A stretch of DNA of 64,000 nucleotides from a virus (IMGVR_UViG_3300045921_000484:25258-89257); one strand, 5' to 3'; positions 24,437 to 61,500 are shown, counted from the stretch's first letter. Numbers and translations are program-made. Notes: a model not told the origin generated them from the sequence alone.

Positions 24437-25549
24437 ATGAGGGTATTTATAACTAGTGATTGGCATTTTGGTGTTTACCTTAATAATTTAGATAAATGGT
24501 TGGATATGATGGAAGACTATTTCTATAATTCTTTTATACCATATATAAAAGAAAATGCCAAAGAAGGTGATATAATGATACACTGTGGTGACCTTTATGA
24601 TAACAGAACATCAATCCCTATAATAGCTTCATATAAAGCTGAAAAAATACTTCTAGAGCTTTCTAAAATAATGCCGTTGCACATAATTGTTGGTAATCAC
24701 GATCTTTGGAATAAGGGAACAAATGATGTTAATTCTGTGAGATTATTCAATCATATTAGTAATATTCACGTTTACACCGAAACAACATCAATCGAAGTTA
24801 TGGGTAAGAAGTTAGTACTTATGCCTTGGGTTGAAAATAGATTAGATATGATTAAGGAAATTAAATCTAATCCAGGTGATTATTTATTTTGTCACTCTGA
24901 TTTGAATGGGTGTAGGATGCATTTAAACTCAGTTGCTCATAGAAATGCTGATAAGATTGATGTTGTGGAGTTTAGTGGATATAAGCATGTATTTTCTGGA
25001 CATATACATATACGTCAACAAAATGAGAACTTTTCTTTTGTTGGTTCTCCTTATCAAATGGATAGAAATGACATGGGTGATCAAAAGGGTATCACTATAC
25101 TTGACCTATCAACTGGTAAAATTGATTTTGAACCTAATAAATATTCACCGGTATTCAGAAAGTTTTCTATTAGAACCGAAGAAGACGTTGATAGATTAGA
25201 TGAACTAAAAGACACTAAGGATTACATAGATTTATCTATTTCGAATAATTTATTAGTTACTAATAGAAAACTTCGTAGAAAGCTAGAGGTTATGCTTGAG
25301 AAAGGTAACTTTGCTTCTGTTGAGTATATTGATGATATTGTGAGTGAAGATACAACTGAAAATAATGAGTCTATTGAAGTTAAGGAAGATGAATTAGATG
25401 TCTCTATACAATTTGAATATGAAGAGTATATTAAAGAATATATCCTTAGACAAAAGTATGATAATGATAAATTCAAGAATGGTGTTCTTACTGAATATGA
25501 TGAGATTGTTAAGATATTTAATGAGAACTATAAATCTAAGACAGACTAA
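24437..25549 (+). CDS. Recombination nuclease, T4 gp47/SbcD/Mre11-like
   Basis: SDWHFG, GDLYD, VGNHD, FSGHIH metallophosphoesterase motifs. Confidence 0.92.
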   Translation: MRVFITSDWHFGVYLNNLDKWLDMMEDYFYNSFIPYIKENAKEGDIMIHCGDLYDNRTSIPIIASYKAEKILLELSKIMPLHIIVGNHDLWNKGTNDVNSVRLFNHISNIHVYTETTSIEVMGKKLVLMPWVENRLDMIKEIKSNPGDYLFCHSDLNGCRMHLNSVAHRNADKIDVVEFSGYKHVFSGHIHIRQQNENFSFVGSPYQMDRNDMGDQKGITILDLSTGKIDFEPNKYSPVFRKFSIRTEEDVDRLDELKDTKDYIDLSISNNLLVTNRKLRRKLEVMLEKGNFASVEYIDDIVSEDTTENNESIEVKEDELDVSIQFEYEEYIKEYILRQKYDNDKFKNGVLTEYDEIVKIFNENYKSKTD

Positions 25550-25773
25550 TGATCGACTACTTATTTGAACTAGAAAGTAAGAGATATCCGTTTTATAATG
25601 TTATTAAAATAGATGTAATATCGAATGAGAATGGTATTATAACTTATAGAGTTCTTATTGATTCTAAATTTGAAACAGGTAAGTGGATAAAGCAGGAACC
25701 AACAAGAACTATTAGGTTATCTGAATTAGTTGCTGAAATGAGAGATGAGAAAATTAAAAAGATATTAGAGTGA
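25549..25773 (+). CDS. Small hypothetical protein with C-terminal RDEKIKKIL tag
   Basis: 74 aa, coupled to the gp47 stop (TAATG). Confidence 0.65.
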   Translation: MIDYLFELESKRYPFYNVIKIDVISNENGIITYRVLIDSKFETGKWIKQEPTRTIRLSELVAEMRDEKIKKILE

Positions 25774-25775
25774 TT

Positions 25776-26042
25776 TCAAAGCTTTTGTATCCTTATTTTA
25801 AGATCACCGGTTCCTTTTATTATTCTATGATATACACCTTTTGGTATAAATATTTTACCATCAATTTTTTTCGGAAGATCATCATCTATTTGAAATAACC
25901 AATCTGTTTCGCCAATCGATTCGATTATTCTATCTTCAAAATCTCTGTGCCACATAAATTCTCCGGAATCGGTTTCTTGCTTAAATTCTCTAATAAATAT
26001 ATTTTCTGATAATTTAGTTTCGGTAAATGGTAGGGGTATCAT
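25776..26042 (-). CDS. Small cupin-fold protein
   Basis: MWHRDFE...FIPKGVYHRII. Confidence 0.6.
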   Translation of the reverse strand: MIPLPFTETKLSENIFIREFKQETDSGEFMWHRDFEDRIIESIGETDWLFQIDDDLPKKIDGKIFIPKGVYHRIIKGTGDLKIRIQKL

Positions 26043-26764
26043 TAAAAATCTTTAAATTTTATAATATCATCTCTAAGCATGCTCATGAATTTATCTTCAA
26101 AATATTTTGAGTCTTTTTTGTATCCTGATTTACTTTCATCATTCGGGTCTTTTGTCCATTGATACGACCAAAATAAATCGGTTGGTGTTTTAAATCCAAA
26201 GAAAGAAAGCACTTTCTTTTCTAAATCAATAGCCTCATTACCATTCCAGTTATGTCCGACAGAGATAACACCTGCTTCTATATCTTTTATAATATTACTC
26301 TCACCTAAAGTTTTATGTCTATTTTCTAACCAGGTCAATCTTTCGATCAATTTAGTGTAGATTGAATTCATCTTGCCCCATCTTATAGATCCAAAAAATA
26401 AAACCGCTTCGGATATCAATAATTCATTTACAATTTTATATAACTCATCATCTGAATTGTTATAAGATGCCCAACATCTATGTTCACCGGTTTTATCTTT
26501 ATTACCCTTTAATAGAGCCTCTTTTACACCACAACTATTTCCGTTTTTACCACTAACATTTCCTTCACATACATGTATATTTAGCTTAGAAACGTCAATT
26601 ATAGTAACATTATTCTTGCCAAGATGTTCCCGCATTTGATAAGCTATTAATGATGATTTAGGTAATTCATCATGTCCTTCCCATCTATTAGATGTTAGCA
26701 GGAAAAGAACTTTTTTCTTTTTCCTTAAATGACTTATTGTTTTTTTGTATTTTGTAATAGACAT
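26042..26764 (-). CDS. Flavodoxin-fold NAD(P)H-dependent FMN reductase-like protein
   Basis: HVCEGN...SC...RCW, DDELYKIVNELLISEAVLFFGSIRWG, KLIERL. Confidence 0.7.
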   Translation of the reverse strand: MSITKYKKTISHLRKKKKVLFLLTSNRWEGHDELPKSSLIAYQMREHLGKNNVTIIDVSKLNIHVCEGNVSGKNGNSCGVKEALLKGNKDKTGEHRCWASYNNSDDELYKIVNELLISEAVLFFGSIRWGKMNSIYTKLIERLTWLENRHKTLGESNIIKDIEAGVISVGHNWNGNEAIDLEKKVLSFFGFKTPTDLFWSYQWTKDPNDESKSGYKKDSKYFEDKFMSMLRDDIIKFKDF

Positions 26765-26854
26765 GCTTAATTAATATATTTTTTTATGAAAGGCATATTT
26801 TTGTATATTTTTATATTATATAAGGACAAAACATTTAAGTAATATGCAAATATT

Positions 26855-27577
26855 TTACCAATAACCAGGGTAAGTTTTACCACCCCAGAGATGTCCGTAT
26901 TTATTTATTCTACATGCCCAGTACCCTGCTTTAGTCTTATCTTTTTTGGTAGAACATTGATGTCTTGCTGCGAATGATTTTCTAGCTTCTGGATTTGATA
27001 CTTTAGCACTTAATCCAGTTGTATCTCCGAAAGAAATTTTTTTAACATTTCCGCTTTTTGGATCTTTCACATAAACGTAGTATTTCTTAGATCCTCCTCT
27101 CATTGGGTGATTTAATTTAACTTCTTTACCCTTATATTTAGCCTCATTAATATCCTCGGTGTATTCCATTGGAATATCTAAAGGTACTATTTCATCATTA
27201 AATTTTGCAAATCTTCCTATATCGGTGCATTCAAATAGTTCTTTATCTTCTTTTAATAGTTCGATTTGACCTTTATCGAATAAGTTTCTAGCTTCTTTTA
27301 ATAGGTTAAAAAATGAATTAGATCCAGGTCTGAATACATTTTCAACAATTGATTTTTTGTTATCGATGTGATACTGAAGTTTTTCACTTATCATTGATGA
27401 TGCATTACTAAATGATTCGAACTTCTCAACTTTATCAAGTTCTTTTTTGAAATTTTTATCATTATTTTTAGGATCATTAGTAAATTCAATTATTTCATCA
27501 TCAGCTATTGATTTATCGTTAAATCCTTGGTCTTTAATTTTTTTATCTGATTCATTGAATCTTTTAATATGTTTCAT
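26855..27577 (-). CDS. Putative virion protein with CTS-like N-terminus and DUF6321-like C-terminal domain
   Basis: MKHIKRFNES; KKYYVYVKDPKSGNVKKISFGD...ARKSFAARHQC...AGYWAC. Confidence 0.7.
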   Translation of the reverse strand: MKHIKRFNESDKKIKDQGFNDKSIADDEIIEFTNDPKNNDKNFKKELDKVEKFESFSNASSMISEKLQYHIDNKKSIVENVFRPGSNSFFNLLKEARNLFDKGQIELLKEDKELFECTDIGRFAKFNDEIVPLDIPMEYTEDINEAKYKGKEVKLNHPMRGGSKKYYVYVKDPKSGNVKKISFGDTTGLSAKVSNPEARKSFAARHQCSTKKDKTKAGYWACRINKYGHLWGGKTYPGYW

Positions 27578-27948
27578 TATCTTTCGCTTAATTTTTTGAC
27601 GATTAATGCGCACTTTTCATACTCTTCATTATCTTCTAATTCTTTTTTATAATCTAAAAGTTGTTGTCTATCAGATAATTCTAATCTAATTCTGAATCTA
27701 ACTTCTTCTAATTCACTCATGCTGTTCACAGAGTTATCGATAATATTATCTATTACATATTTATCAAATTTACCAACGCTTATGAAATCATTCCAGTCAT
27801 TTATATCATTTTCTTTTAGAAATTTAATAATAGTATTAACACAGTCGTCTATTCTATTATTAGAATCTTTTTTCTTTTTTTTGAAAATCTTTTTGAAGAA
27901 TTCTTCATTTATGAATTCTCCATATTTTATAACATTTCTTTTTCTCAT
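27577..27948 (-). CDS. Hypothetical protein with CTS-like N-terminus and UVR-like C-terminal motif
   Basis: VIKYGEFINEE; ends EDNEEYEKCALIVKKL. Confidence 0.65.
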   Translation of the reverse strand: MRKRNVIKYGEFINEEFFKKIFKKKKKDSNNRIDDCVNTIIKFLKENDINDWNDFISVGKFDKYVIDNIIDNSVNSMSELEEVRFRIRLELSDRQQLLDYKKELEDNEEYEKCALIVKKLSER

Positions 27949-28019
27949 ATAATTATATATTAATTTTCATCATCAAGAAATACGAAATTAATATATAAAC
28001 AAAAGCATTAACACTATAA

Positions 28020-39709: not shown

Positions 39710-41062
39710 ATGAATCAATATAACAACGACATGAGTAAATTAGTAACATTAAATGGTATTGACGATCAGGAATTACTTAATGAGTTATTCAATGATGAGA
39801 TAACTGTCTTTGAAGATGTGCAGGGGAGTAAAATATGGGTTAATTGGAACGGTAAAGAGTTTATAATTAAACCAAAGTCAATATCAAATGATCCCATTAG
39901 TCTTATAGATTTAGCAATGCAGAATTACTATAATCCTGCTATTAATTATTTTAATTCTCTCGATGAAAGAATTAAGGGACTTCTAAATAAGAAATGGTGG
40001 TTTTGTTTTGAGTATTTTCCTGATAATCAACCAGCTAATATTGAATACTCAAGAGTTCCAAAGAATAATTTAGTATTAACTTCTATTAATAAGGGTGGTA
40101 ATAAATATGAACTCAATCTTGAAGAGATAGATGAGTATTCTAGATTATTTGATGTTGATATGATACCGGTTGTCTTTCAAGGTAAATTGACTGAGAGAAT
40201 GATAGAGGCTATTAAGTATTTTATTAATACGAGTGAGAAAGACCTTGAATATATATTTGGTGAGAAATCATTTTCCTTTTTCTTTTATAAGATATTGAAT
40301 CCAAGATCAAATGGTTCTTTCTTAATGGAGGATGAATATCAAAGTAATTTAGAAAAATTAATAATAAGAACTAAATCAAAAGATATTTCATTTGAGCTTC
40401 TTAATCCTTTATATAAAAGGATAAGTGATAATAATTCAACCGAGTTTGTTGAAATATACACACTAATACTTGTTAACTTTCTTAGTTTTTGTCAATCGGT
40501 TGATATGTCTGATATTAAATTGAAAGGTGATAAGAAAGATGAAGTTTATCTATACCTAATGTGTAAGTTATTCAACATATATGTTTCTGAGGTTAAACAA
40601 GACTTGCTGAATTTTGAATTTACAGTTCCAGCATTCTTTGATAAGGAGAAATTCAAAATTAATACTGAGTTAATACCAAATAAATTGACAAAAGAATATA
40701 TACAAGAAAGTGATAAATTAGAGTACATTTTCAAAGTTATACTTGGTTCATTTAATAAAAAGAGAAAGAAAGCAATAGGTGTTTTTACAGATAACACCGT
40801 TTCGATATTTAATAGTTTTGTTGATGATATATCAAATTACATTGAGAAGTACCTAAATAAAATACATGAGGTTGAACTTAATAGAGCAGGTCTACTTGAC
40901 TTTGGAGATTTTTTTGAGATTAAGTATGATCAAGATGGTGAAGGTGAAATTTATCCTGATGTCTATTCTGAGTTTGAAAAAGGAGTTTCTGATGAAAAGA
41001 AGAAAAAAGGTGGAATTAAAGGTAAAGTTCCACCATCTGAACCTACTGAAAGCACTAAATAA
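39710..41062 (+). CDS. RNA ligase 2-like nucleotidyltransferase fold lacking the catalytic Lys
   Basis: VFEDVQGS (motif I position, K replaced by D), FCFEYF (III), MIPVVFQG, LEKLIIR (IV), FELLNP (V). Confidence 0.5.
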   Translation: MNQYNNDMSKLVTLNGIDDQELLNELFNDEITVFEDVQGSKIWVNWNGKEFIIKPKSISNDPISLIDLAMQNYYNPAINYFNSLDERIKGLLNKKWWFCFEYFPDNQPANIEYSRVPKNNLVLTSINKGGNKYELNLEEIDEYSRLFDVDMIPVVFQGKLTERMIEAIKYFINTSEKDLEYIFGEKSFSFFFYKILNPRSNGSFLMEDEYQSNLEKLIIRTKSKDISFELLNPLYKRISDNNSTEFVEIYTLILVNFLSFCQSVDMSDIKLKGDKKDEVYLYLMCKLFNIYVSEVKQDLLNFEFTVPAFFDKEKFKINTELIPNKLTKEYIQESDKLEYIFKVILGSFNKKRKKAIGVFTDNTVSIFNSFVDDISNYIEKYLNKIHEVELNRAGLLDFGDFFEIKYDQDGEGEIYPDVYSEFEKGVSDEKKKKGGIKGKVPPSEPTESTK

Positions 41063-41244
41063 TGAATATGGGAGAAGTTAAAGTTGGTACCTTTTCTGTT
41101 AAGGCGGAATTTACTAGAATAATGGTTGATGATTTAAACAATATGAAACCATTTGATATTGCTAAGATTGAAGATGAAATATTAAAGAGACTTAATCGAC
41201 CCTCTTATAGAAAAAAAATAATAAATAAAATTTTTAATTTATAA
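41062..41244 (+). CDS. Small hypothetical protein with RKKIINKIF tail
   Basis: 60 aa, coupled to the upstream stop. Confidence 0.55.
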   Translation: MNMGEVKVGTFSVKAEFTRIMVDDLNNMKPFDIAKIEDEILKRLNRPSYRKKIINKIFNL

Positions 41245-42710: not shown

Positions 42711-43253
42711 ATGATGATAGGCTTAGAGCAACCAAACACATCCTATATTATTTTATCTTCTGATAAGTTAGAAGATATGATTTCTATTCTTTATGCAAAA
42801 GATTATCAAATAATTCCAATAAAAGGTTATTACCGAGGCCAGTATGAGGATTCTGTTATGGCATTTGGTAGAGTCGATAATGATAATTTAAGAAAGGATG
42901 TATTATTCTTATTAAATCATTTTCACCAAGAATGTGCTATAATTAAGTATTTGGATGAGACCAAAGCTAAGAAGATATTTAAGGATGGGTCTGAGAAGCC
43001 ATTAGGCATTGTTATGTATAATACAGATTCTGAGAACAAATCATATCTATATAATGGCCTTTCATTTTCGTTTGTGGAAGCTGTTAGATATTGGAAGCCA
43101 ACTAAAAAAGAAGACTTTAAGGTTGGTATGATAGTAGAGTACCTAAATAACAATAAGTGGTACGAGAAAAAAGTAGAAAATCCTTCAGAAGAATATGAGA
43201 GGCTTTACAAGCTTTTAATTAAATATGATAAAGTTAGAGTTGCTTCTAAATAA
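42711..43253 (+). CDS. Hypothetical protein (weak DUF3293-like pattern)
   Basis: IKGYYRGQYEDS...FHQECAI; preceded by TTTTAATATATA. Confidence 0.65.
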   Translation: MMIGLEQPNTSYIILSSDKLEDMISILYAKDYQIIPIKGYYRGQYEDSVMAFGRVDNDNLRKDVLFLLNHFHQECAIIKYLDETKAKKIFKDGSEKPLGIVMYNTDSENKSYLYNGLSFSFVEAVRYWKPTKKEDFKVGMIVEYLNNNKWYEKKVENPSEEYERLYKLLIKYDKVRVASK

Positions 43254-43995
43254 CATCAAACCATTGAATTTTATTTTCCCACTTACCTAATTCACTTAGG
43301 AAATAATGATCACTTGTCAGACTTTTAACAAGTGTTAATCCTGTTTCTATTTTTTTCTCAGTCCTCATAATTATGACTTTATTTGGTGATATATTAGGAT
43401 CTATTACAACATCCATTCCAGCAATTTTTTTTAGCGAAATAATTGATTCAGTGATATTAACAGATTGTGTGAAATGATGATCGAATGGTATTAAATGTGA
43501 TATTGCGTTATATCCAGATATGACCGTTGTTCCGGGACCAGTTCTTCCTTTTGATGCTATTAGATTACTTAATAGTAAACATTTGGTTATTATTTTTCTA
43601 CAAAGTACATCTGCATCCATACCAGATGAATATATTGGTTGATGTGGAGATGGCGTTAAAGTTAATGATTCTAACTTTTTAATTACTTCTTTCCATAAAT
43701 CATCATAATTTGTAAATATATTAGAGGATATATTCTTTGACATCATTCTCGGTGAGATTGAAGGTATATACATCTCATTGTCTATTTGATTTTCAGATGA
43801 AAACTTCTCAAATTCATCAACTTTATTATCAATTATAGCATCTATTACCTTTTCCCTTCTTTCACTAATAATCTGTCTTTTTTCCTCGTCTTCATCATAT
43901 ATAAAATCCATATATGATATTTTTATAACTGGTAATCCATTTGTGTTTAATTCGGAATAATTACATATTAATTGTAAATCATATTTGGTTATCAT
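43246..43995 (-). CDS. Hypothetical protein
   Basis: 249 aa at the end of the glycosylation operon. Confidence 0.7.
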   Translation of the reverse strand: MITKYDLQLICNYSELNTNGLPVIKISYMDFIYDEDEEKRQIISERREKVIDAIIDNKVDEFEKFSSENQIDNEMYIPSISPRMMSKNISSNIFTNYDDLWKEVIKKLESLTLTPSPHQPIYSSGMDADVLCRKIITKCLLLSNLIASKGRTGPGTTVISGYNAISHLIPFDHHFTQSVNITESIISLKKIAGMDVVIDPNISPNKVIIMRTEKKIETGLTLVKSLTSDHYFLSELGKWENKIQWFDVI

Positions 43996-47257: not shown

Positions 47258-50031
47258 ACTTCTTTTCCATTTATATAATTTTTAATATCATCATAACCTT
47301 TTCTCAGCTTGATGATTTCTCCGTTGTGTTTGTATATTTGAAAGTATTTACTACAAATAATAGATGGTTTCATTATATCTATTATAAATTCTTTATTCCA
47401 TATAACATAATTAAATGATAGCTGATCCCTTTTTGAGTATTTATAGATTTGATCCCACCACAATTCGCCAATTTCTCTAGAATATTGATTGTTATTCCTG
47501 ATGATTATACCAGATTGTACTAATCCATTATCTTTCGGATACCCCATTTTCATATATTGAGACATTTGTTCGTTTACAACATCAGATTTATCTTTATTTA
47601 ATAAAATAACAGCATTTGACTCATCATATATGCATTTTCTATCTGGGTGTTTTGCTATAGCAAAATAATTTATTAGATTATTAGATATAAATTCGTTTAT
47701 ATTGCCTATAACTTGAATATTTCCATCCACCCATACAGTTGTCTCATATTCTTTTAGAAAAATATGAGGTAATGTCTTAACACATCTAGCTATTTTGGCT
47801 TGATCAACTTCATTCATATATTCCGGAATTTTTCTTATTTCCCAGGTCTCGCTTTCTATTTCTCTATCAGTATAACATATATAATCTATGTTATTCTCAA
47901 CATTTAAAACTTCCTTCAATATATCATATCCACCTGATATACAAGTGTAGATCGCAATTTTATTTCTATTTTTAATTTTTGATAGCTTTTTATACCTATT
48001 ATTGTAATTTCTATCACTTAAATTTCCATGATATAAGTGATTGATAGTTTCATTTAGATATCCGATGGTATATTTACCAAGTGAATCAATCCAACTTATT
48101 GAGTTTTTCCATATTTTGTAATTATTCTCCTTTACTTTACTAAGTGTCCATCCGTTCTTTACATTGAATAATCCATATAGAAATATGGTGTCACCACCAC
48201 CCACATACATTTGTTCAAATAGTTTCTTTTCTTTTAGTATTCTTACTTTACCCATCCATGATCCACCCGGTTTGTATCCTTTCTCCAATAAATAGTCTAT
48301 ATTTTTTGAATCCGGATTAGCTGACATTATTGATTTATGTGATTCCAATAATTCACCATTTTCACCTAAGTAATTAATCTTATTAAATAGTTGAACGAAA
48401 TCGTATCCTTTTGATATTGAGTCTAAATTATTTAACCAATCGAGATTTTCATATATTAAATCACCATCTATCCATATTAGATAGTCGGTATTTACTTTTT
48501 CTAAAATTTTATTTATTAATATTTCTTTTGACCATATTTTATTATCTATATCACCATCAATTATTAACTTTTCACAAGGTATTTCAAAATCTATATCTCC
48601 ATAATTAATAACACCGACAATCATCTTATCATAATAATCCTTAAATTGATCTAAGAATTTTATGAAGTTATTTTTTTGTCTTATATCATTTCGAAAATTG
48701 AAGTAATATGAACAAATTGTATATGTTGTTTTTTTATTAAATAGTCTATTTATTTCTTCATCATTTATGAACATTTCGGTTTCTCTACCTTTCCAGTTAG
48801 AATAGGCTTTCCCTAAGTGTATGACAGATATATTTATATCTACCCTATTGTTAAATTTATTTCTAAATGATAAGTCACTCCAAGAGGCATCATCTGATGT
48901 TTCAGGGAAAATGGGATTTCTACCGAATATCGCACTACTGTTTACATTGAATAATTGAAAATATCCAAAACCTTTAGATGATTCTATCTTACCAACTTGT
49001 TCACCGTTAATCCATCTTTGATAATCATCGTAGTTTTCTATGATATTTCTACTGCATATATGTAGAGCGTCCTTCTTAAATATATTGGAGTTTATTATTT
49101 CACTCCAGTTATTTGGTAGTATAATATCTGCATCGAGTAGTAATATCCATTCTGGATTTTGAATAGATTTTATACCTTCATTAATAGCCTTCCCCTTATT
49201 AAACTTCGCTCCATCCTCATACATTCTATCCGTTATTACACATTTAACTCCGAATTTATCACATATTTCCTTACATAATGTATCACTAGTGGAAGTAACA
49301 ACCGTTATATTTTCTAAGTATTTTATATTATTCTTTAATGTTAGAATTAAAAAATCATTATAATCTACTGAGACTATAACTGCATCAATTTTATTAATTT
49401 TTATTCCTGGATCAGCCTTTATATCTTCTTTTTTGGCGACTTGTCTTCTTGATTGTAGATTAACAATTTGGCTTTCAATGTTTGATTCTTTTTGTATATT
49501 CCTTCTTGGTATTATATCGAAGTTCTTGGTTTGTGTTTGTATTGGTTTTGAATAGTACGATGGTCTTTTATTATTCACTATAATACTTAATGATACATCA
49601 ATTCGTTCACCTATTAGAGACTCATATATTGTTTGTTTAGATTCATCCAATATTATATTATCAAATATTAAAGTATCGATTGATCCTTTATTCAATAATC
49701 CATTAGAGTATGAACTTAGTTGAATTATCTTTCCTTTACCAATACTATTTACCTTCATTAGAGTGTGATTAAAAATGGCATATGGGTTTGCCCATATTAT
49801 TGTTTCATTCTTATGTATATTACTAACATATTTAAGAATATCAACTTCACTATATCCTTTTTTTATTGAGAAATTTATTTTGTTATTTTTAGGTAGTCCA
49901 GGTATGTCTAAGTCTGAAAATATCAATATTTTTGATATAAGGCTATTAGATATGTTTTGTCTAAGTGATTCCAAATAGTCAATCTTATATGGTTCTAATT
50001 CTCTGTATTGTATTTTATGGACAAGTATCAT
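47254..50031 (-). CDS. Multidomain glycosyltransferase (two GT-A domains + TOD1/MUCI70 DUF616-like domain)
   Basis: FNKGKAINEG/LLLDADII; WSKEILIN/IWIDGDL; IAIYTCISGGYD...VWVDGN...HPDRKCIYDE...RDQLSFNY. Confidence 0.8.
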   Translation of the reverse strand: MILVHKIQYRELEPYKIDYLESLRQNISNSLISKILIFSDLDIPGLPKNNKINFSIKKGYSEVDILKYVSNIHKNETIIWANPYAIFNHTLMKVNSIGKGKIIQLSSYSNGLLNKGSIDTLIFDNIILDESKQTIYESLIGERIDVSLSIIVNNKRPSYYSKPIQTQTKNFDIIPRRNIQKESNIESQIVNLQSRRQVAKKEDIKADPGIKINKIDAVIVSVDYNDFLILTLKNNIKYLENITVVTSTSDTLCKEICDKFGVKCVITDRMYEDGAKFNKGKAINEGIKSIQNPEWILLLDADIILPNNWSEIINSNIFKKDALHICSRNIIENYDDYQRWINGEQVGKIESSKGFGYFQLFNVNSSAIFGRNPIFPETSDDASWSDLSFRNKFNNRVDINISVIHLGKAYSNWKGRETEMFINDEEINRLFNKKTTYTICSYYFNFRNDIRQKNNFIKFLDQFKDYYDKMIVGVINYGDIDFEIPCEKLIIDGDIDNKIWSKEILINKILEKVNTDYLIWIDGDLIYENLDWLNNLDSISKGYDFVQLFNKINYLGENGELLESHKSIMSANPDSKNIDYLLEKGYKPGGSWMGKVRILKEKKLFEQMYVGGGDTIFLYGLFNVKNGWTLSKVKENNYKIWKNSISWIDSLGKYTIGYLNETINHLYHGNLSDRNYNNRYKKLSKIKNRNKIAIYTCISGGYDILKEVLNVENNIDYICYTDREIESETWEIRKIPEYMNEVDQAKIARCVKTLPHIFLKEYETTVWVDGNIQVIGNINEFISNNLINYFAIAKHPDRKCIYDESNAVILLNKDKSDVVNEQMSQYMKMGYPKDNGLVQSGIIIRNNNQYSREIGELWWDQIYKYSKRDQLSFNYVIWNKEFIIDIMKPSIICSKYFQIYKHNGEIIKLRKGYDDIKNYINGKEV

Positions 50032-50061
50032 AAAATTATATATAAAGAAAAATCGTCTCTA

Positions 50062-50472
50062 ATGGAGAAAAAAGTGGGTAGAAAAGAGGTAATTTCTTTT
50101 CCAGATTTAGGAATAGAAAAGATTAAAGCCAAGGTTGATACCGGAGCTTATGGTATAGCTTTACATGTTGATGGTGTAGAAGTCGTTGATGATAAAATTT
50201 ATTTTTGGATTGGAGATAAAAGTCGTATATTTGTATTTGATAAGTACAAAAAAATAAAAGTTAAAAGTTCTTTTGGAAGAGAACAGGAAAGATATTCCAT
50301 TTTAACTAGAATAAAATTAGGCGATAGAATTTATAAATTTTATGTATCATTAACCGATAGAAAGAATATGAGATATCCGGTATTAATAGGTCGTAGATTT
50401 CTTTATAAGTTTGACTTTTTAGTGGATGTGAGAAAAATAAATCTACATTATGATAGAGATAAAAAGGTGTAA
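50062..50472 (+). CDS. RimK-associated retropepsin-like aspartic protease
   Basis: VGRKEVISFPDLG...AKVDTGA...DRKNMRYPVLIGR; likely start MEKKVG at 50062. Confidence 0.85.
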   Translation: MEKKVGRKEVISFPDLGIEKIKAKVDTGAYGIALHVDGVEVVDDKIYFWIGDKSRIFVFDKYKKIKVKSSFGREQERYSILTRIKLGDRIYKFYVSLTDRKNMRYPVLIGRRFLYKFDFLVDVRKINLHYDRDKKV

Positions 50473-50992
50473 TTATATAACTGGACATGATGTCAGTTCC
50501 GTTTCTTTTGGGTTAACAAAGATTGTCGACTTCCTTGAAGCATCTGGTAGAACACCCCTATTTTTATCCAAACCAGATAATAAAACATCATTAAAATCAT
50601 TTATAAAATCTTCAAAGTTTGAATTTAAAAATCGGCATGAGTTTGAAGTGATAATAACAAACAAAGGTAATCTATTTAGAGTTGACTTATTGATAGTTGA
50701 TCTATGGCATTTAAGTACCGTTTCATCAGTACTTGATTATAAAAAAATTTTGGATAAACTAAATATTGATTATATGATAGTTTGTACTAAGTATCACTAT
50801 AAAGTTGATGATAATAACACTAGAGTCTATCATATAGACAAAGAGGTTATTGATACGGTTTCTTGGATAAAGAATTATAATTATATTATAAGTGAGAAAG
50901 TTGATGGGTGGAAGTCAACCATAGATGATTTGATACTATCTTATAAGAGAGATAAGAAGATTGATGATATCTTTGGTGAAAATTCTATTTAA
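50450..50992 (+). CDS. Degenerate P-loop-like protein with C-terminal RDKKIDDIF tag
   Basis: LLIVD Walker B-like strand, no GKT; layout parallels 57258..57746. Confidence 0.6.
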   Translation: MIEIKRCNYITGHDVSSVSFGLTKIVDFLEASGRTPLFLSKPDNKTSLKSFIKSSKFEFKNRHEFEVIITNKGNLFRVDLLIVDLWHLSTVSSVLDYKKILDKLNIDYMIVCTKYHYKVDDNNTRVYHIDKEVIDTVSWIKNYNYIISEKVDGWKSTIDDLILSYKRDKKIDDIFGENSI

Positions 50993-51018
50993 AATCTTTC
51001 TAAATTAATTTTTTTCCT

Positions 51019-51026
51019 TATATTTG
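51019..51026 (+). promoter_or_regulatory. Bacteroidota-type -7 element TATATTTG
   Basis: Intergenic, just upstream of the peptidase gene. Confidence 0.55.
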
Positions 51027-51042
51027 TATTATAAAATCATAA

Positions 51043-52179
51043 TTGATGAGAATTAGACGAAAATTTCTGCAACTTACTCGAAAAACATTTCCTTACGGCT
51101 ACGAAAGTGAACTAGTAAAGTATTTACCTGATGGATCTTCTGTTGATGAACATGGTAATTATTTTTATATAGTTGGAGATAATCCAACAACTATGTTCAC
51201 TTGTCACCTAGACACTGCTTGTGATGAACAGAAGTTTGTAAAACACGTTTATTCTGATAGAATTATTAAAACAGATGGTACCACTATCTTAGGTGCTGAT
51301 GATAAGGCAGGTATGGTTGTTCTTCTTTATATGATCGAGAAGAAAGTCCCAGGTCTTTACTATTTTTTTATTGGTGAGGAAGTTGGTTGTATTGGTTCCA
51401 GTAAACTGGCAGAGGATTGGGAGAATTTCGAATATAAGGATTCTATTAAGAAAGTCGTTTCTTTTGACCGTAGAGGCACAAAATCTGTTATTACTCATCA
51501 ATTGTATGGTCGTTGTTGTTCTGATGAATTTGCTGAAGAACTATCTTTTCGTTTAAATACAGCTGGATATGATTTGAATCTTGAACCGGATGATACTGGT
51601 ATTATGACTGATTCTGCTAAGTTTATTGACCTTGTTCCAGAGTGTACAAATATTTCTGTTGGTTATTATAAAGAACATACATATGGTGAAAGTCAAGATA
51701 TTGAATATTTGACAAGACTTTGTAGATCAGTTGTTCTAATTGATTGGGAAACATTACCAGTTGAGAGAGATCCTTATATTAACTATGAGTATTATGAAGA
51801 GGAATATGATGCGTATAACTATGGTAACTATGATAATGGTCGTTATTTCAGTCCAAATAACTGGACTTGGGTAAACACCAAGACAGGTGTTAAGAAGATG
51901 TATATATCAAGTAGTCAGATAGATAAAGAAAAGTCTATGATATATTCCTGGTTATTTAATAGTGGTTTGTATCACAGTGTCATGAGTATTTCTTGGAATG
52001 GAAATACACTTTATATTGAGAATCAAAGAGGTGATATGGAATATGTTGGTGGTAGAATGGATGTTTGTGAAATGGTTCCGGATTTGAAATTTATATCTTC
52101 TAGTCAGTTATCTGATAAACCTACAAGAAAATCAAATTTACTTTTTGGGCGAGTTCAAAAAAAAGAATTCCTGATGTAA
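51043..52179 (+). CDS. M20/M28-family metallopeptidase
   Basis: FTCHLDT, LGADDKAG, FIGEEVG, SFDRRG, GYYKEHT. Confidence 0.85.
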   Translation: MMRIRRKFLQLTRKTFPYGYESELVKYLPDGSSVDEHGNYFYIVGDNPTTMFTCHLDTACDEQKFVKHVYSDRIIKTDGTTILGADDKAGMVVLLYMIEKKVPGLYYFFIGEEVGCIGSSKLAEDWENFEYKDSIKKVVSFDRRGTKSVITHQLYGRCCSDEFAEELSFRLNTAGYDLNLEPDDTGIMTDSAKFIDLVPECTNISVGYYKEHTYGESQDIEYLTRLCRSVVLIDWETLPVERDPYINYEYYEEEYDAYNYGNYDNGRYFSPNNWTWVNTKTGVKKMYISSSQIDKEKSMIYSWLFNSGLYHSVMSISWNGNTLYIENQRGDMEYVGGRMDVCEMVPDLKFISSSQLSDKPTRKSNLLFGRVQKKEFLM

Positions 52180-53759: not shown

Positions 53760-54254
53760 ATGTTTGAACTGAAAGGTAAAATAGAATTCGACCCAATTAA
53801 TGTGACTAGAAAGCATCACAGTCAATCTATTTGGAAGAAAGTTGCATTGGTTAAATTTGATTGTGATATAGCTGAGTACTACTCTTGGTTCATTGAAAAT
53901 AGATTCAACTTTGCCAAAAATGAAAGAACTGGTTTAATTCTTAATAAACCACTTCGTGGAACACACATAACTATTATTAATGATCGTGTCGATGATGAGA
54001 TTTATTCGCAAGCTAGAGAAATATTTCATGGAAAAGAAATAATTTTATTCTATGATCCAACCTATATTAGAGCTAACAATAAAGGTCATTGGTGGATTAA
54101 AGTTTATTCTGATGATGCTAGAAATATCAGAACTGCTATGGGGCTATCTCCGGATCCATACTTTGGATTACACCTAACTCTTGGTAGAGTTACCGATTTA
54201 AGATTAGAACAATCTAACTATATTGTGGAACAATGCAAAAGATTCAATCTGTAA
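53760..54254 (+). CDS. 2H phosphoesterase family protein
   Basis: Two Hx(T/S)-hydrophobic motifs: GTHITII and GLHLTLG. Confidence 0.65.
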   Translation: MFELKGKIEFDPINVTRKHHSQSIWKKVALVKFDCDIAEYYSWFIENRFNFAKNERTGLILNKPLRGTHITIINDRVDDEIYSQAREIFHGKEIILFYDPTYIRANNKGHWWIKVYSDDARNIRTAMGLSPDPYFGLHLTLGRVTDLRLEQSNYIVEQCKRFNL

Positions 54255-54730
54255 TAACACACTTAGAGAGAGTCTATGGTTTAGAGGTCGTTCCTTGTTC
54301 AATTCCAAGGAACGACTTTCAACGCCTTAAAAGAATTTTTTACCTATTTATTCATAATAAGATAAGTGAGGATTTATTTTACTTCCTGAGAGATAAAGTA
54401 TCTCCTATTAAATATCTAGCTGAAAGACCTGAGGGTGAAATTTGGTTAAGAAAGAGAAACGGACAAGGTAGGATTGAATTTGAGATAGAACTAAAACCTT
54501 TACCAATAGAAGCTTGTATCTATTGTGTTGGTTCTGAAAATCCACTATTAGATATTAATATAGGTGATAATTATAGGGTTAGAGTATATCATCAAATGAA
54601 TGAGATTGAAACAATTGAGTTTGTTGTAAATCATTATCGAGGAATTGAAATATTCAATCAGAATTTATCAGAAATTCCACAATTTAAGCAACTATATAGA
54701 GATTATAAATTGAGTAAGATACTCAATTAG
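54233..54730 (+). CDS. Hypothetical protein with C-terminal RDYKLSKIL tag
   Basis: 165 aa. Confidence 0.65.
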   Translation: MQKIQSVITHLERVYGLEVVPCSIPRNDFQRLKRIFYLFIHNKISEDLFYFLRDKVSPIKYLAERPEGEIWLRKRNGQGRIEFEIELKPLPIEACIYCVGSENPLLDINIGDNYRVRVYHQMNEIETIEFVVNHYRGIEIFNQNLSEIPQFKQLYRDYKLSKILN

Positions 54731-55922: not shown

Positions 55923-55937
55923 ATAATCAAAATCAAT

Positions 55938-55957
55938 TTTTTAATATATATTAAAAA
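55938..55957. promoter_or_regulatory. Perfect 20-bp palindrome carrying AATATATA on both strands (bidirectional late-type promoter candidate)
   Basis: TTTTTAATATATATTAAAAA centred between divergent starts at 55922 and 55972. Confidence 0.6.
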
Positions 55958-55971
55958 TCAAATACTATTTT

Positions 55972-56409: not shown

Positions 56410-56441
56410 AACAATTTATGGTATACTTAATATCATGAAAT

Positions 56442-57227: not shown

Positions 57228-57257
57228 ACATTTTATTTATTATGATATATAAATCCT

Positions 57258-57746
57258 GTGTTTGATTGTAACTTTAATATAATAATGGGTGATAGAATGT
57301 CTGGTAAAACAACATACTTAGTGTGTTTATCAAATTTGATGATGATTGGTGGATTAAGAGTTTGTTTTATAGGAGGTTCTACTGAGCTGGAAAATTCACC
57401 AAATGTGCAAAATACAGCTAACATTGTTAGATTTATTAAAGGCTCCGGGACGAATTCTGATAAGTGTAATCTAAAGATGTTAGAGTCTATAAGAGAAATA
57501 TCACATAGAGATAAATATGATTTTATTTTGGTTGATGACTTTGATCTATTATCAAAAAAATGTATTGAGTTATTAAAGTCTATCAAAATTAAAAAAATAG
57601 TAACTTGCTCGATGAATGAAATACCTATTTTGAATGAATCAATATCAACATATCAACTATCTGACTATAAAATAGACAAATTTGGATTTATGGATTTATC
57701 AAGAATATTGATAAGAGATAAAAAAATAAAAGAAATATTAAAATGA
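57258..57746 (+). CDS. Small P-loop NTPase-like protein with C-terminal RDKKIKEIL tag
   Basis: GDRMSGKT (Walker A), FILVDD (Walker B). Confidence 0.65.
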   Translation: MFDCNFNIIMGDRMSGKTTYLVCLSNLMMIGGLRVCFIGGSTELENSPNVQNTANIVRFIKGSGTNSDKCNLKMLESIREISHRDKYDFILVDDFDLLSKKCIELLKSIKIKKIVTCSMNEIPILNESISTYQLSDYKIDKFGFMDLSRILIRDKKIKEILK

Positions 57747-58795
57747 ATAATAACGTAGATAGACAATATTTTGAACTTATTAGACATATTCTAAATAATG
57801 GTACAAAGAAAATAGATAGAACAGGCACAGGCACAATTTCCGTATTTGATTATACGATGAGATTTAATATGAGTGAGGGTTTCCCCTTACTCACTTCAAA
57901 AAAAATGTTTATCAAGGGGATTATACATGAACTGATTTGGTTCCTTCGAGGAGATACTAATATTAAGTATCTTGTTGACAATGATGTTCACATTTGGGAT
58001 GGAGATGCTTATAAGAACTATCTAAATCGATATCGCAATGTAAATAATCATCCTTTATCAAAAGAAGAATTCATTAATAAAATAAAAACCGATGATGAGT
58101 TTGCTAAGAAGTGGGGTGAATTAGGTCCTATTTACGGGGCACAGTGGCGTAACTGGGGAAGGAATTATATTTCTGATTCATCTATCAGTTTAAGTCATTC
58201 AAAATTATCGGGTGGTAAATATATCGACCAAATTGCAAATTTAATTAATGAGCTTAAAAATAATCCAGATTCAAGAAGATTGATGGTGTCTGCTTGGAAT
58301 GTTGGTGAGTTAGACCAAATGGCTCTTCCTCCCTGTCATTATGGGTTTCAGTGTTATACACAAGAAATGAATATGTTTGAGAGAAAAAAGTATTGGTGTG
58401 ATTCGATCGGTAAGAGCATTAATTATGCTGAGGATTTCACAGATATTGAATTGGACAATATGGGAATCCCTAAGAGAAGAATAAGTTTGAAGTGGACTCA
58501 AAGATCTTGCGATGTGCCACTTGGAATTCCGTTTAATATTGCCTCTTACGGGTTTTTATTACATTTATTGGCTAGAGAGGTAAATATGATTCCACATGAA
58601 TTAATATTTTCAGGAGGTGATTGTCATATTTATTTAAATCAAATAGATGCTATTAAGGATCAACTAAATAATAAGACTTTTACCTTACCTAAATTAGTTT
58701 TGAATAATAAATCAATAGATGATTTGAGATATGAGGATTTTCAAATAATCGGATACCAATCTTCTGATTCCGTTAAAATTCCTTTATCAAACTAA
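57743..58795 (+). CDS. thyA: Thymidylate synthase
   Basis: DRTGTGT, ELIWFLRG, SRRLMVSAWN, ALPPCH, QRSCDVPLGIPFNIASY. Confidence 0.97.
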   Translation: MNNNVDRQYFELIRHILNNGTKKIDRTGTGTISVFDYTMRFNMSEGFPLLTSKKMFIKGIIHELIWFLRGDTNIKYLVDNDVHIWDGDAYKNYLNRYRNVNNHPLSKEEFINKIKTDDEFAKKWGELGPIYGAQWRNWGRNYISDSSISLSHSKLSGGKYIDQIANLINELKNNPDSRRLMVSAWNVGELDQMALPPCHYGFQCYTQEMNMFERKKYWCDSIGKSINYAEDFTDIELDNMGIPKRRISLKWTQRSCDVPLGIPFNIASYGFLLHLLAREVNMIPHELIFSGGDCHIYLNQIDAIKDQLNNKTFTLPKLVLNNKSIDDLRYEDFQIIGYQSSDSVKIPLSN

Positions 58796-58827
58796 ACTTT
58801 ACCCTTAAAAAAATAAAATAAATAAAA

Positions 58828-59313
58828 ATGAGTAATACTAAATCATATCTTGACAATATTATTGAGAGTATAAAAAGTATAGATACCGATAATCTCTCAG
58901 ATGAAGTATCAAAGGATGTAATAACTAAAATAGTTGAAGAGCAAAAAGTATATTTTTGGATTAGACTTTATTTAAAAGATGAGGATCCAAATATTCAAGT
59001 AGGTGATGATATTATAATTGAATATGTGCCGAGTGGTGAAGAGTTGATTACTAAGTTTATATGTTACGATAAACAAGGATTAAGTACTGATCATCAAGGT
59101 GAAATTACCAATTACAATCCAGAAGACAATAAAAAGGTTTTATGTTTAATGGTTGATACAAAAATGGTCAATTATAATGATGATATACCTTTTATAAGGA
59201 CACTATTTAAGATGAGTTATCATTATAATTACCAATTAGTAAAAAGAGATGAGCTTTTATTCATTAATGGTAAAAATGGTATGTTGCTTGACTATTTCGA
59301 TGTTGATTTTTAA
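58828..59313 (+). CDS. Hypothetical protein
   Basis: 161-aa acidic ORF. Confidence 0.7.
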   Translation: MSNTKSYLDNIIESIKSIDTDNLSDEVSKDVITKIVEEQKVYFWIRLYLKDEDPNIQVGDDIIIEYVPSGEELITKFICYDKQGLSTDHQGEITNYNPEDNKKVLCLMVDTKMVNYNDDIPFIRTLFKMSYHYNYQLVKRDELLFINGKNGMLLDYFDVDF

Positions 59314-59564
59314 TAGAAAAGTATAAAAAATTATACTTTTTTTAAAATTTTTGAAATCTATTCAGTTAGTTAAGAAAAAGGATTGTTCTTCATTTATTTT
59401 ATATTTATAAGAATTTAACATATTTATATGTTAAAGTATAAAAGTCATTTTTTTGTCTTTTAAACTTTTTAAACTTTTTTGATAAAATTTTAAATCAAAT
59501 ACACCATAGAATCTATTCTGTGTTTTATTTGTACGAATTCATGATAAAAAAATGATTTATTTAA

Positions 59565-61229
59565 ATGTTAATTGAAACGCAGTATTTAACAAATAGTAAG
59601 AAATTAGTAGTAAGTTACGTTGATAAGAGTGGAGATATAAAGCTTAAGTACTTTAATTGGGATACACCAATGAAATATGTTTCTTGTGAGGACTCAGATC
59701 CACAGAAGCACCCAAGATTTAAATCTTGGGATGGTAAGTCTGTAAAACAAATAGAGGTTAATCAACCAGATAGATATGCTATTTATGAGTTCCTTGATGC
59801 TTTACCAGAAGATGAGAAGAATGAAATATTCGAATTTAATCTACCTAAGATATATTTTATAGATATCGAGACCGAGATTATTGATGGGTTTCCTGAAGCA
59901 TCTGAGGCCAATACGAGAGTATTATCAATTTCAATTGTTTATGATAATAAAATAATTCTTTTGGGTCTTAAAGAGATGTCACAAGAGATGCAGGATAGAA
60001 TAATTAATAACACAAATAAGTACTTTGAGAAGTTCAATGCTGATTATAAGTTCAAATACATCAAATATGAAGATGAGTTTGATATGTTATATGCGTTTTT
60101 CTATAAAATGGTTCCTAAAATGCCACTTCTAACTGGTTGGAACTTTTTAAATTATGACTGGACATATTTAGTTAATCGTTCAAGAAAAATATCTAAATGG
60201 GTTAATGGTAAGGAATATAAAATTGATCCAGCTGTTTCTTCTTTGACTAAGAGATTGAATAAAATTTGGGCAACTGAATATGAAGTACCTGCACATCGAA
60301 TGATATTTGACTATATGCAATTGTACGAGATATGTGATACCTCTATTAAGGTAAAAGAATCATCATCATTAGATTTCGTTTCTAGTAAATTGGTTGGAAT
60401 TGAGAAGATTAAGTATGTTAGTTCAATTTATAAGTTGAAGGATGATTCAACTATAATGGGTTATTCTTTTAAGAAGGGTGATATTTGTAGAAATGATAAA
60501 GAAGGATTCTATATGTATATTGGTACTAAAAGGATAAATATACCTGATGACAAATTTATTTCTTTAAAACACTTATTTGAGGAAATAAACGTATCTAACT
60601 TACAGAAGTTATATGATACAGACTTTGAAATCTATATGTACTATAATACGGTCGACTCCGTTCTTGTTCAGAAGATACATGAAGCCAGAAACTATATCTC
60701 AATAATTTATGCGATTTCATCATTGGCTCAAATTAGAATAGTTGACGTAGTTTCACAGATGAATAATGCACTTGGCTCACTTGCTATTACAGAGGGAGTT
60801 CTTAGAAATAGATTCAGAGATATGGATAATATAGTACTCTTCAAAGATGAAAGAGGAGACACTGAATCTACTATTGCTGGTGGTTGGGTTAAAGACCCCG
60901 TTGTTGGATTGAATCAGTGGGTTGTTTGTTATGACTTCGCATCACTTTATCCTACGACACAAAGACAATTCTATATTGCTCCAGAGACATTTGTTGGTGT
61001 TCAGAGATCTGATAATCCTAAATACTGTGATAATGGTAAAGAAATTGACCTTGAGAAGCATGTGGTTTGTGTTAATGGTGTTGTATTTGAGAAAAGAAAA
61101 TCACCAACACTTCAAATGCTTGAAGATGTTTATGCTGACCGTAAGAAAAACAAAAATATAATGATGGATAAAAAGGAAGAACTTAAAAAAGTTCTTGATG
61201 AAATTAAGAAGTTAGAAGCTGAATTGTAA
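59565..61229 (+). CDS. Family B DNA polymerase, N-terminal subunit (exonuclease + motif A; lacks motifs B and C)
   Basis: IDIET (ExoI), GWNFLNYDW (ExoII), YNTVDS (ExoIII), YDFASLYP (motif A); stops after the first fingers helix. Confidence 0.88.
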   Translation: MLIETQYLTNSKKLVVSYVDKSGDIKLKYFNWDTPMKYVSCEDSDPQKHPRFKSWDGKSVKQIEVNQPDRYAIYEFLDALPEDEKNEIFEFNLPKIYFIDIETEIIDGFPEASEANTRVLSISIVYDNKIILLGLKEMSQEMQDRIINNTNKYFEKFNADYKFKYIKYEDEFDMLYAFFYKMVPKMPLLTGWNFLNYDWTYLVNRSRKISKWVNGKEYKIDPAVSSLTKRLNKIWATEYEVPAHRMIFDYMQLYEICDTSIKVKESSSLDFVSSKLVGIEKIKYVSSIYKLKDDSTIMGYSFKKGDICRNDKEGFYMYIGTKRINIPDDKFISLKHLFEEINVSNLQKLYDTDFEIYMYYNTVDSVLVQKIHEARNYISIIYAISSLAQIRIVDVVSQMNNALGSLAITEGVLRNRFRDMDNIVLFKDERGDTESTIAGGWVKDPVVGLNQWVVCYDFASLYPTTQRQFYIAPETFVGVQRSDNPKYCDNGKEIDLEKHVVCVNGVVFEKRKSPTLQMLEDVYADRKKNKNIMMDKKEELKKVLDEIKKLEAEL

Positions 61230-61269
61230 TTGAATTATTGAACTAAAAATATTCAAACATTAAATAAAA

Positions 61270-61500
61270 ATGAAAGCGATTTGTATAAAAAGTAAAATAT
61301 TTGACTTTGGATCCTCTTATGGAGGTACTCAATTCAAAGTGGAAAAAGGAAAAGTGTATGAATACATAAAGGATAATTTTGGATTTAATATACAAGATGA
61401 AGATAGAAGAAATCTTTATTATACTATAATAAATTTTCATGAATTTTTCATAGATATTATTGAATATAGAGAACAAAAAATAAATAAAATATTGAATTAA
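61270..61500 (+). CDS. Small hypothetical protein with C-terminal REQKINKIL tag
   Basis: 76 aa. Confidence 0.65.
   Translation: MKAICIKSKIFDFGSSYGGTQFKVEKGKVYEYIKDNFGFNIQDEDRRNLYYTIINFHEFFIDIIEYREQKINKILN

Follow-up and report, generated by a model that had tools for sequence, protein, structure and literature searches.

The 64,000-nucleotide (nt) stretch of viral DNA considered here, referred to as the window, corresponds to bases 25258-89257 of a 195,295-bp IMG/VR virus contig (IMGVR_UViG_3300045921_000484; the whole contig is also labelled G000), and it encodes proteins of unrelated sequence that end in the same short peptide, a C-terminal tag of the strict pattern R[DE]xK[IL]xx[IL][LF]. 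This tag is a real and strongly non-random feature of a tagging system that extends across a clade of T4-like megaphages with genomes of roughly 300-640 kb. The system appears to be undescribed; limited literature searching turned up no published account of the tag, in agreement with an earlier note on this DNA whose author knew of none.

Greedy calling gave 69 open reading frames (ORFs) in the window and 231 in the whole contig. The window ORFs contain six strict matches, five of them C-terminal, and in the whole contig seven of eight matches lie at ≤6 residues from the C-terminus. Within-protein shuffles served as the null model and the reversed motif as a second control. The shuffled contig proteins (2000 shuffles) gave a mean of 0.115 matches and 0.004 C-terminal ones, and the reversed motif had no match in the contig proteins. 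A profile made from the seven tails recovers them well apart from all other sequences, and it also picks an internal copy in a mimic of the capsid N-terminus encoded outside the window. The five strong C-termini listed in the earlier note are all present where it had placed them (Table 1), and the C-terminal recurrence that it claimed exceeds the shuffled background both in the contig and in the larger genome described next.

The nearest public relatives of the contig are the uncultured huge phages LR745206 (635 kb) and LR756502 (642 kb), and the contig is collinear with the 175-355-kb core of LR756502, with a median protein identity of 60%. LR756502 uses the standard genetic code and has 982 reading frames, in which a looser form of the pattern finds 140 matches, 115 of them at ≤10 residues from the C-terminus, compared with 7.5 and 0.5 in shuffles; none of the 140 begins within the first 15 residues. 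Twelve percent of the reading frames (115/982) are therefore tagged, and the frequency is highest, 24%, among proteins of 80-120 residues. The tag is unevenly distributed along the genome, the two arms being rich in it (15/53 ORFs in the first 20 kb and 25/55 in the 620-640-kb bin) and the region collinear with the contig carrying it on only about 8% of proteins, so that the window is a sample of the tag-poor core. At the DNA level the tag pattern is abundant in LR745206 and in the IMG/VR contigs of the clade, and it is absent from LR756501, LR756504, Prevotella phage Lak-C1 and Sphingomonas phage PAU. The tag provides a simple sequence marker for the clade and helps to confirm small reading frames as real genes.

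The contig itself has a G+C content of 28.8% and a CheckV completeness rating of 34%. Its T4-type genes encode a gp23-type major capsid protein (MCP), a large terminase and a giant sheath-like protein, and it also encodes a gp47/Mre11-like nuclease, a gp44-type clamp loader, a short gp55-like late sigma factor and the N-terminal half of a split family-B DNA polymerase. It is about one third of a T4-like megaphage genome. As a side observation on genome size, the contigs G022 (483 kb) and G024 make CheckV completeness look unreliable for this clade; five tag sites of the 483-kb contig recur at shifted coordinates in a 242-kb contig rated 89% complete, which looks like about half of such a genome.

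A portable peptide under selection

The tag is about 10 residues long, and in the 115 LR756502 examples its logo reads h(-1) R0 [D/N/E]1 x K3 [L/I]4 x x [I/L]7 [L/G]8, where h is hydrophobic, followed by 0-7 residues that are frequently K, D, E or N. The arginine at position 0 is invariant (115/115), lysine occupies position 3 in 103/115 tags, and positions -1, 4, 7 and 8 are hydrophobic. Two subtypes are seen, one ending in ..[IL]L plus the 0-7 trailing residues and the other in ..LG[IL]-COOH; the latter, with about 32/115 members, is the sole subtype with a fixed non-polar last residue. When the tag is projected onto a helix, positions -1, 0, 3, 4, 7 and 8 fall on one side and positions 2, 5 and 6 are variable. 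The shared amphipathic terminal helix described in the earlier note is well founded: it is portable, acts at the level of the peptide, occurs on unrelated non-structural proteins with its conserved residues on one face, and is helical in an AlphaFold 2 (AF2) model of a 165-residue (165-aa) window protein, in which the tag lies inside helix 149-164 (predicted local distance difference test, pLDDT, 86 for the model).

At each tag position several synonymous codons are used at roughly their genome frequencies, with arginine encoded by AGA, AGG and CGT and leucine by CTA, CTT, TTA and TTG, and with a mild bias toward codons ending in A. This variety indicates that the constraint acts on the peptide and not on the DNA. 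The DNA flanking and downstream of the tags is unrelated between genes, which together with the synonymous codons speaks against a mobile DNA cassette of the PeSL-like or attC-like kind. The bodies are equally diverse, as the earlier note had held. With the tags removed, 124 bodies fall into 114 BLAST clusters, the pairs being mostly orthologues between the two genomes, and a Pfam search of 114 tagged LR756502 proteins matched 16 families with one member each. Tagged enzymes include a riboflavin kinase, whose domain ends about 85 residues ahead of the tag, and BtpA. No Pfam or PHROG family is common to the seven window proteins and none explains their shared end.

The tag is maintained in proteins that otherwise diverge quickly. 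Every strongly tagged contig protein with an LR756502 orthologue keeps it there (5/5), as does one weaker example, although these pairs are only 29-54% identical compared with the genome median of 60%. In the family of the 165-aa protein, which has 168 metagenomic homologues, the tag is found in 112 of the 120 listed; four of the eight untagged ones have near-variants of it and the rest are apparently truncated. In this family the conservation of the tag columns equals that of the best-conserved stretches of the body. Most tagged proteins are small, faster-evolving and early or accessory; the set also includes enzymes and miniature copies of the MCP. One of these copies, a tagged 253-aa protein outside the window (G000 1140-1901, + strand; window coordinates -24117 to -23356), is a partial copy of the phage's own gp23-type capsid protein and matches residues 439-497 of the 563-aa MCP (G000 4622-6313). 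The protein encoded at G000 172127-172585 matches the MCP N-terminus and has the tag internally.

The tagged genes do not belong to the late type. Among words enriched upstream of genes, the top one is TAATATATA, a promoter-like box that precedes structural genes and several replication genes and is found within 50-60 nt upstream of 74/231 contig genes and 201/982 LR756502 genes. It lies directly upstream of just one of the 115 tagged LR756502 genes, compared with 200/867 other genes of that genome. Where the nearest same-strand upstream box could be assigned, it is of the TAnnTTTG type for 42/51 tagged LR756502 genes. This Bacteroidota-type box also precedes small-gene arrays. The tagged proteins are, moreover, a population separate from the head-cargo-like proteins that carry an N-terminal tag of the MKHLKxYKIFES type, which resembles a capsid-targeting sequence (CTS): none of the 53 N-tagged LR756502 proteins has the C-terminal tag (Fisher p = 0.0017), so the mutual exclusion that the earlier note had remarked on among a few window proteins generalises to a whole genome.

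Candidate readers of the tag

All conserved residues of the tag are on the same side of the helix, as would suit an element that docks on a single common partner, and we consider it probable that the tag is a genetically encoded, portable C-terminal address helix read by such a partner. Conservation of the Arg/Lys and hydrophobic face, together with variability of the opposite face, suggests that the helix would be bound on one side, in a groove of the common partner that is both hydrophobic and acidic. With over 100 different proteins as its clients, the reader would more plausibly be a catalyst than a hub bound in stoichiometric amounts. Our favoured candidate, which we regard as possible rather than probable, is the clade's own ClpC unfoldase, which lacks the N-domain (headless ClpC) and retains the VGF loop for docking ClpP. 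On this reading a tagged protein would be a substrate removed at a set time or else an adaptor bringing bound targets to ClpC-ClpP. The earlier note had proposed that one receptor reads the tag as a signal for docking, localisation or degradation, and the one-faced helix is as expected from that proposal. Its thought of a Clp-type reader receives circumstantial support for the phage-encoded headless ClpC and not for a host protease.

LR756502 encodes three ClpP paralogues and a 707-aa ClpC, and the same ClpC occurs in LR745206. The Pfam domains of the LR756502 protein are AAA, AAA_lid_9, UVR, AAA_2 and ClpB_D2-small, with no Clp_N domain. By these domains the candidate reader belongs to ClpC (class I Clp/Hsp100): it has a pair of AAA+ modules, UVR as its middle domain, a D2-small domain and the VGF loop. 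The D2 segment F-G-x-G-V-G-F, which holds the ClpP-docking loop, is largely invariant in 30 short-ClpC homologues. The short ClpC starts about 45 residues before D1 with ..DIKAALEDDDDD and has a conserved N-terminal peptide ..[IV]K[AS][AS]LEDDDDD.., whereas the long ClpC of other phage contigs has a canonical N-domain that aligns to the N-domain of B. subtilis ClpC. Relatives of the LR756502 ClpC were found in at least 572 IMG/VR stretches, and all near-complete tag-bearing genomes examined encode a ClpC without N-domain. No recognisable promoter box was found for the Clp genes. As an observation apart, one 686-aa headless ClpC-like protein (locus L195 on IMG/VR contig G027, ORF 331-2391) begins with MKKLKLYELFTGEE, which resembles the CTS-like N-terminal tag of the group.

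At 21 of 32 IMG/VR short-ClpC loci, a gene 7-23 nt upstream of ClpC encodes a 107-141-aa protein, here called the helper. The bodies of this family are only 24-49% identical, and one residue alone, an arginine in a C-terminal tag-like helix, ERRDEIIDEILNETS, is invariant; the consensus of the helix is ERR-[DE]-x-[I/K/L]-[IL]-[DN]-[DE]-[IL]-L-N. The full tag pattern is present at locus L058 (RDSKIDELL) and a close version at L070 (RSYKLKKIL), and a relaxed pattern is matched by 16/21 helpers compared with 9/378 other reading frames of the same loci. In the AF2 model of the helper, a tail-tube/Hcp fold is predicted with confidence for residues 1-91 (pLDDT >90; Foldseek probability 1.0; TM-score 0.5-0.6 to Hcp and tube proteins), and the pLDDT of about 50 for the tag-like helix indicates that this helix is not packed on the body. 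Tube and Hcp proteins assemble as hexameric rings, as ClpC does, and from this shared symmetry it is a reasonable picture that a helper ring would dock on the ClpC motor through six tag-like helices. The pairing of a headless ClpC with a tail-tube/Hcp-fold protein directly upstream was seen at IMG/VR loci L054-L088 and at LR756502 440128-442667; in other phage lineages a UVR-like protein, or nothing, lies upstream of ClpC.

The tag and the helper-ClpC pair occur together. The tag DNA pattern has 4-32 matches, compared with 0-1 for the control, in LR756502, LR745206 and seven IMG/VR contigs with the pair, and 0-1 matches in most contigs in which ClpC is long, is missing, or is short and has no helper upstream; contig G013, with three matches against one in the control, is ambiguous. 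Contigs were also picked through their polymerase instead of ClpC. These are mostly fragments, and the one near-complete contig among them, G022 (483 kb), has both the tags and a short ClpC. LR756501 has a ClpC with N-domain, LR756504 a headless ClpC without helper and Lak-C1 a ClpX-like protein; all three are without the tag and hence provide no contrast.

Several points weigh against a ClpC reader. The ClpC genes are outside the 195-kb fragment that holds the window, so that the link rests on relatives. Tag, short ClpC and helper are confined to one clade, so that neither their co-occurrence nor the gene adjacency is independent of phylogeny, and each counts as about a single evolutionary event. 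In the helper helix two conserved positions of the tag are changed, Lys3 usually to Ile and the hydrophobic residue at -1 to Arg. Classical ClpX and ClpA degrons are at the extreme C-terminus, whereas 0-7 variable and often polar residues come after the tag. Three tag-bearing contigs (281-385 kb) lack a ClpP of their own and would therefore require that of the host, and a tagged gene located beside a ClpP gene in LR756502 does not keep this position in contig G003. The tag helix of the 165-aa protein is predicted with high confidence (pLDDT 86-94) and may therefore be partly packed on its body. Complex prediction for the short ClpC with the same 165-aa protein gave scores of 0.00 and 0.00, which speak neither for nor against binding.

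A more specific scheme, to which we give a small chance, would make the tag the handle of a phage targeted-proteolysis system. The headless ClpC, capped by the Hcp-fold helper ring and working with phage or host ClpP, would take any protein bearing the helix. For ordinary tagged early proteins this would mean destruction at a set time, and "bait plus tag" mini-proteins that copy the capsid and other core phage proteins would be adaptors, capturing host defence sensors that recognise those proteins and delivering them for destruction like a natural degrader molecule.

Two alternatives place the reader elsewhere in the cell or the virion. Docking of early phage proteins on a host hub (RNA polymerase, ribosome, nucleoid or membrane) or on the host proteases Clp, Lon or FtsH would suit the gene class, since small, fast-evolving, early-type genes behind Bacteroidota-like TAnnTTTG boxes, as in LR756502, are usually aimed at host machinery, and the three contigs without their own ClpP point the same way. 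More than 100 clients would, however, saturate a stoichiometric host site, and the tag is limited to one phage clade, the other huge phages recovered by a clamp-loader search (one of them annotated as a Prevotella phage) being without it. A clade-limited tag fits a phage-encoded reader more easily, and we consider the host reading rather unlikely. Unlikely, too, is a role in capsid or virion assembly, in which the phage would have, at the C-terminus, another peptide for loading cargo or binding scaffold; encapsulin cargo-loading peptides and the C-terminal helices of the P22 scaffold would be its counterparts. The two tag-bearing mimics of the capsid protein and the tail-tube fold of the ClpC-adjacent protein would agree with it, but the box of structural genes is almost never found before tagged genes, the tag never occurs with the CTS-like N-terminal tag, which is the better candidate for head loading, and cytoplasmic enzymes such as riboflavin kinase and a thymidine-kinase-like ATPase are tagged.

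It is also improbable that there is no external reader at all. In that case the helix would either join tagged proteins to one another or cap their C-termini, as a neutral or stabilising element that recombination and the birth of genes in arrays had spread. The concentration of tagged LR756502 genes in the two genome arms would suit this reading, yet conserved core-region proteins outside the arrays are tagged as well, the codon variety at every position speaks against a shared DNA cassette, and purifying selection has kept the tag in orthologues that are 29-55% identical. Furthermore, the (nearly) invariant R0 and K3 share a face with the hydrophobic residues, which is not a self-complementary coiled-coil pattern. 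The sliding clamp, finally, is a very unlikely reader. Like a PIP (PCNA-interacting protein) box or a T4-type clamp-binding tail, which would bring a large number of proteins to the phage clamp, the tag sits at the C-terminus and contains an h-x-x-h-h core with a polar residue three positions ahead, and the tail of the polymerase C-terminal half, R-L-S-V-V-M-D-I-F, shares the skeleton R....h..hh with it; one window protein ends in ..KIDDIFG, close to ..VMDIFGG of the polymerase. That tail, RLSVVMDIF[GS]G..GGF, is almost invariant in 120 homologues and lacks the D1 and K3 of the tag, however, and Phe at position 8 is found in only 4/115 tags. The gp55-like sigma factor and the clamp loader are untagged, and capsid mimics and metabolic enzymes are implausible clamp clients. 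The polymerase tail resembles T4 gp43 SLDFLFG and looks like a T4-type clamp-binding tail. It is because the clade polymerase has its own, different T4-like tail, a conserved motif in its own right, that the clamp is disfavoured as the receptor of the earlier note.

No sliding clamp gene was found in the contig or LR756502 with PF09116, PF02916 or phrog_223, or with phmmer and T4 gp45 as query. A 254-aa gene beside the clamp loader was considered as the clamp and rejected, being a gp15-like sheath stabiliser. The clamp-loader neighbourhood of Tenacibaculum phage pT24 provided no transferable clamp and no tags, and no other replication protein was found to have a polymerase-like tail.

If the reading of one helix by one machine is correct for about an eighth of a megaphage proteome, it would give an experimental handle on more than 100 orphan proteins per genome, which would have a common partner and a common fate, and the tag could serve as a portable reporter tag. 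Should the headless ClpC prove to be the reader, we would know of no earlier case of a bacterial virus running its own tag-and-unfoldase system; such a system would bear on the timing of early functions and on counter-defence, and it would explain why Clp genes are present in so many huge phages. A survey of jumbo phages lists ClpP, ClpS, ClpA and ClpX genes and names neither a tag nor substrates (PMC7824862).

Comparison with known addressing systems

The tag would work like a degron or tether, like a CTS and like a clamp-binding tail, yet it fails the defining feature of each, namely the extreme-terminal position, the N-terminal site with cleavage, and the aromatic pair matching the polymerase motif. 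Degrons and tethers of AAA+ proteases include the ssrA tag, the MuA C-terminus recognised by ClpX and the SspB XB peptide, with MecA and ClpS as adaptors of ClpC and ClpA; phage SPO1 Gp53 is reportedly an adaptor-like protein for host ClpC (PMC6873191). The likeness to these systems lies in a short terminal peptide on unrelated proteins and one reading machine, which here would be the candidate ClpC, and the clade phages likewise carry a ClpC-type unfoldase with a ClpP-docking loop. The small helper gene upstream of ClpC occupies the position that clpS has before clpA. Unlike ssrA, the tag is a helix whose one conserved face includes invariant Arg and Lys, its trailing residues are variable and often polar, and it is encoded in the gene instead of added by transfer-messenger RNA (tmRNA), of which none was found in the contig or LR756502. 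The non-polar last residues of an ssrA-type degron at the extreme C-terminus are not seen, the window tags being trailed by E, N, K, N or GENSI. The phage unfoldase in turn differs from ClpC in lacking the N-domain that normally binds adaptors and phospho-arginine.

The CTS of T4 (IPI-III, Alt) is likewise an encoded address peptide on many unrelated proteins of a T4-like phage, and the present phage has a CTS-like N-terminal tag in addition. The T4 CTS is N-terminal, about 10 residues long, cut at L-x-E by the prohead protease and found on late genes, whereas the tag is C-terminal, has no L-x-E site in its conserved core, excludes the N-terminal tag and belongs to genes without the late-type box. 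PIP boxes and T4 gp45-binding tails (gp43 SLDFLFG, gp55 SLDFLYEAND) share with it the C-terminal location, a short helix-forming h-x-x-h-h core and many clients of one ring-shaped reader; the PIP box consensus Q-x-x-[ILM]-x-x-[FY]-[FY] is not matched, since the tag has no aromatic pair and positions 7 and 8 are I/L and L/G. The C-terminal cargo-loading peptides of encapsulins and the encapsulation peptides of bacterial microcompartments are short terminal amphipathic helices that bring unrelated cargo to one shell protein, and encapsulin shells share the HK97 fold with phage capsids. The difference here is that the timing and gene class of the tagged genes do not fit head assembly. In type VI secretion, which also includes an Hcp/tube-fold protein, the ClpV unfoldase reads an N-terminal amphipathic helix of TssC/VipB through its N-domain. 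The analogy to ClpV-TssC/VipB comprises a Clp/Hsp100 unfoldase, a short amphipathic client helix and an Hcp-fold partner; the phage ClpC differs from ClpV in lacking the N-domain and in having a ClpC-type UVR middle domain and ClpP loop.

Tagged genes of the window and their neighbours

The tagged genes of the window (Table 1) lie among replication and nucleotide-metabolism genes. The start of the first overlaps the stop of the gp47/Mre11-like gene (24437-25549). The 180-aa gene lies between a PF05618 protease and an M28-like peptidase gene, and its LR756502 orthologue retains the tag as RDKKIDGII. The 165-aa gene follows a 2H phosphoesterase. The 162-aa gene is directly upstream of thymidylate synthase, and the alignment with its LR756502 orthologue covers residues 1-116 only, yet the tag is found at the end of that protein as well. 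The 76-aa gene comes just after the polymerase N-terminal half.

Table 1. Tagged genes and tag-like sequences in the window (positions counted from its first base)
Feature	Coordinates	Strand	Tag and C-terminus	Tag DNA or position	Profile score
74-aa orphan protein	25549..25773	+	RDEKIKKIL + E; ..MRDEKIKKILE	25741-25767	24.4
180-aa protein	50450..50992	+	RDKKIDDIF + GENSI; ..KRDKKIDDIFGENSI	50948-50974	
165-aa conserved protein	54233..54730	+	RDYKLSKIL + N; ..YRDYKLSKILN	54698-54724	
162-aa P-loop (thymidine-kinase/AAA-like) protein	57258..57746	+	RDKKIKEIL + K; ..IRDKKIKEILK	57714-57740	
76-aa protein	61270..61500	+	REQKINKIL + N; ..YREQKINKILN	61468-61494	
60-aa ORF, weak tag-like end, membership doubtful	41062..41244	+	RKKIINKIF + NL; YRKKIINKIFNL	41209-41235	
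Internal match, probably chance, not in tag set	43831..43860	-	RREKVIDAII	aa 46-55 of 249-aa protein 43246-43995	
Internal tag-like sequence, XPD/DinG-like helicase 61618-63285	62524..62550	-	RDLKLSKLL	aa 246-254	

Two further members proposed in the earlier note are not retained. The weak end of the 60-aa ORF is outside the 45 best matches of the tag profile over all contig ORFs and the ORF has no LR756502 orthologue, and the internal RREKVIDAII is not C-terminal and is compatible with chance, internal matches to the tag pattern being expected at a low rate. The internal sequence of the helicase lies in an inserted, DUF7759-like region, and the LR756502 orthologue has RDLKISKIL at the same position.

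For the 165-aa protein, Foldseek against the PDB gave no match at E ≤ 0.001, the best being weak portal matches (probability 0.28), and with VIA-align the best Z was 6.3, which is inside the noise range, so that there is no convincing fold match. Its relatives in searches of viral contigs numbered 1 and then 10 loci.

The PF05618 retropepsin-like "zinc protease" gene (50008-50472) overlaps the tagged 180-aa gene by 23 nt and the M28-like peptidase gene follows (span 50008-52179); the order of at least the tagged and M28-like genes is preserved in LR756502. The three genes may form a small proteolysis module. The family-B DNA polymerase is split in two genes, at window 59565-61229 for the contig and at 253853-255391 (+) and 120483-121907 (-) in LR756502, where the halves are about 130 kb apart; the C-terminal half is not in the contig. 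All seven strictly tagged contig genes are on the + strand, compared with 125/231 of the contig genes overall, and LR756502 has tags on both strands. The T4-type large terminase (window 5953-8175, - strand, 740 aa) has a weak match to an intein-splicing domain at residues 18-121 (E = 1.8e-4, under the Pfam cut-off). The gp55-like late sigma factor (G000 16405-16731, - strand, outside the window) ends in ..GLHSI, without a T4-like clamp-binding tail; it is very short, at 108-121 aa, and its 94% identity between the contig and LR756502 is the top value among the proteins compared.

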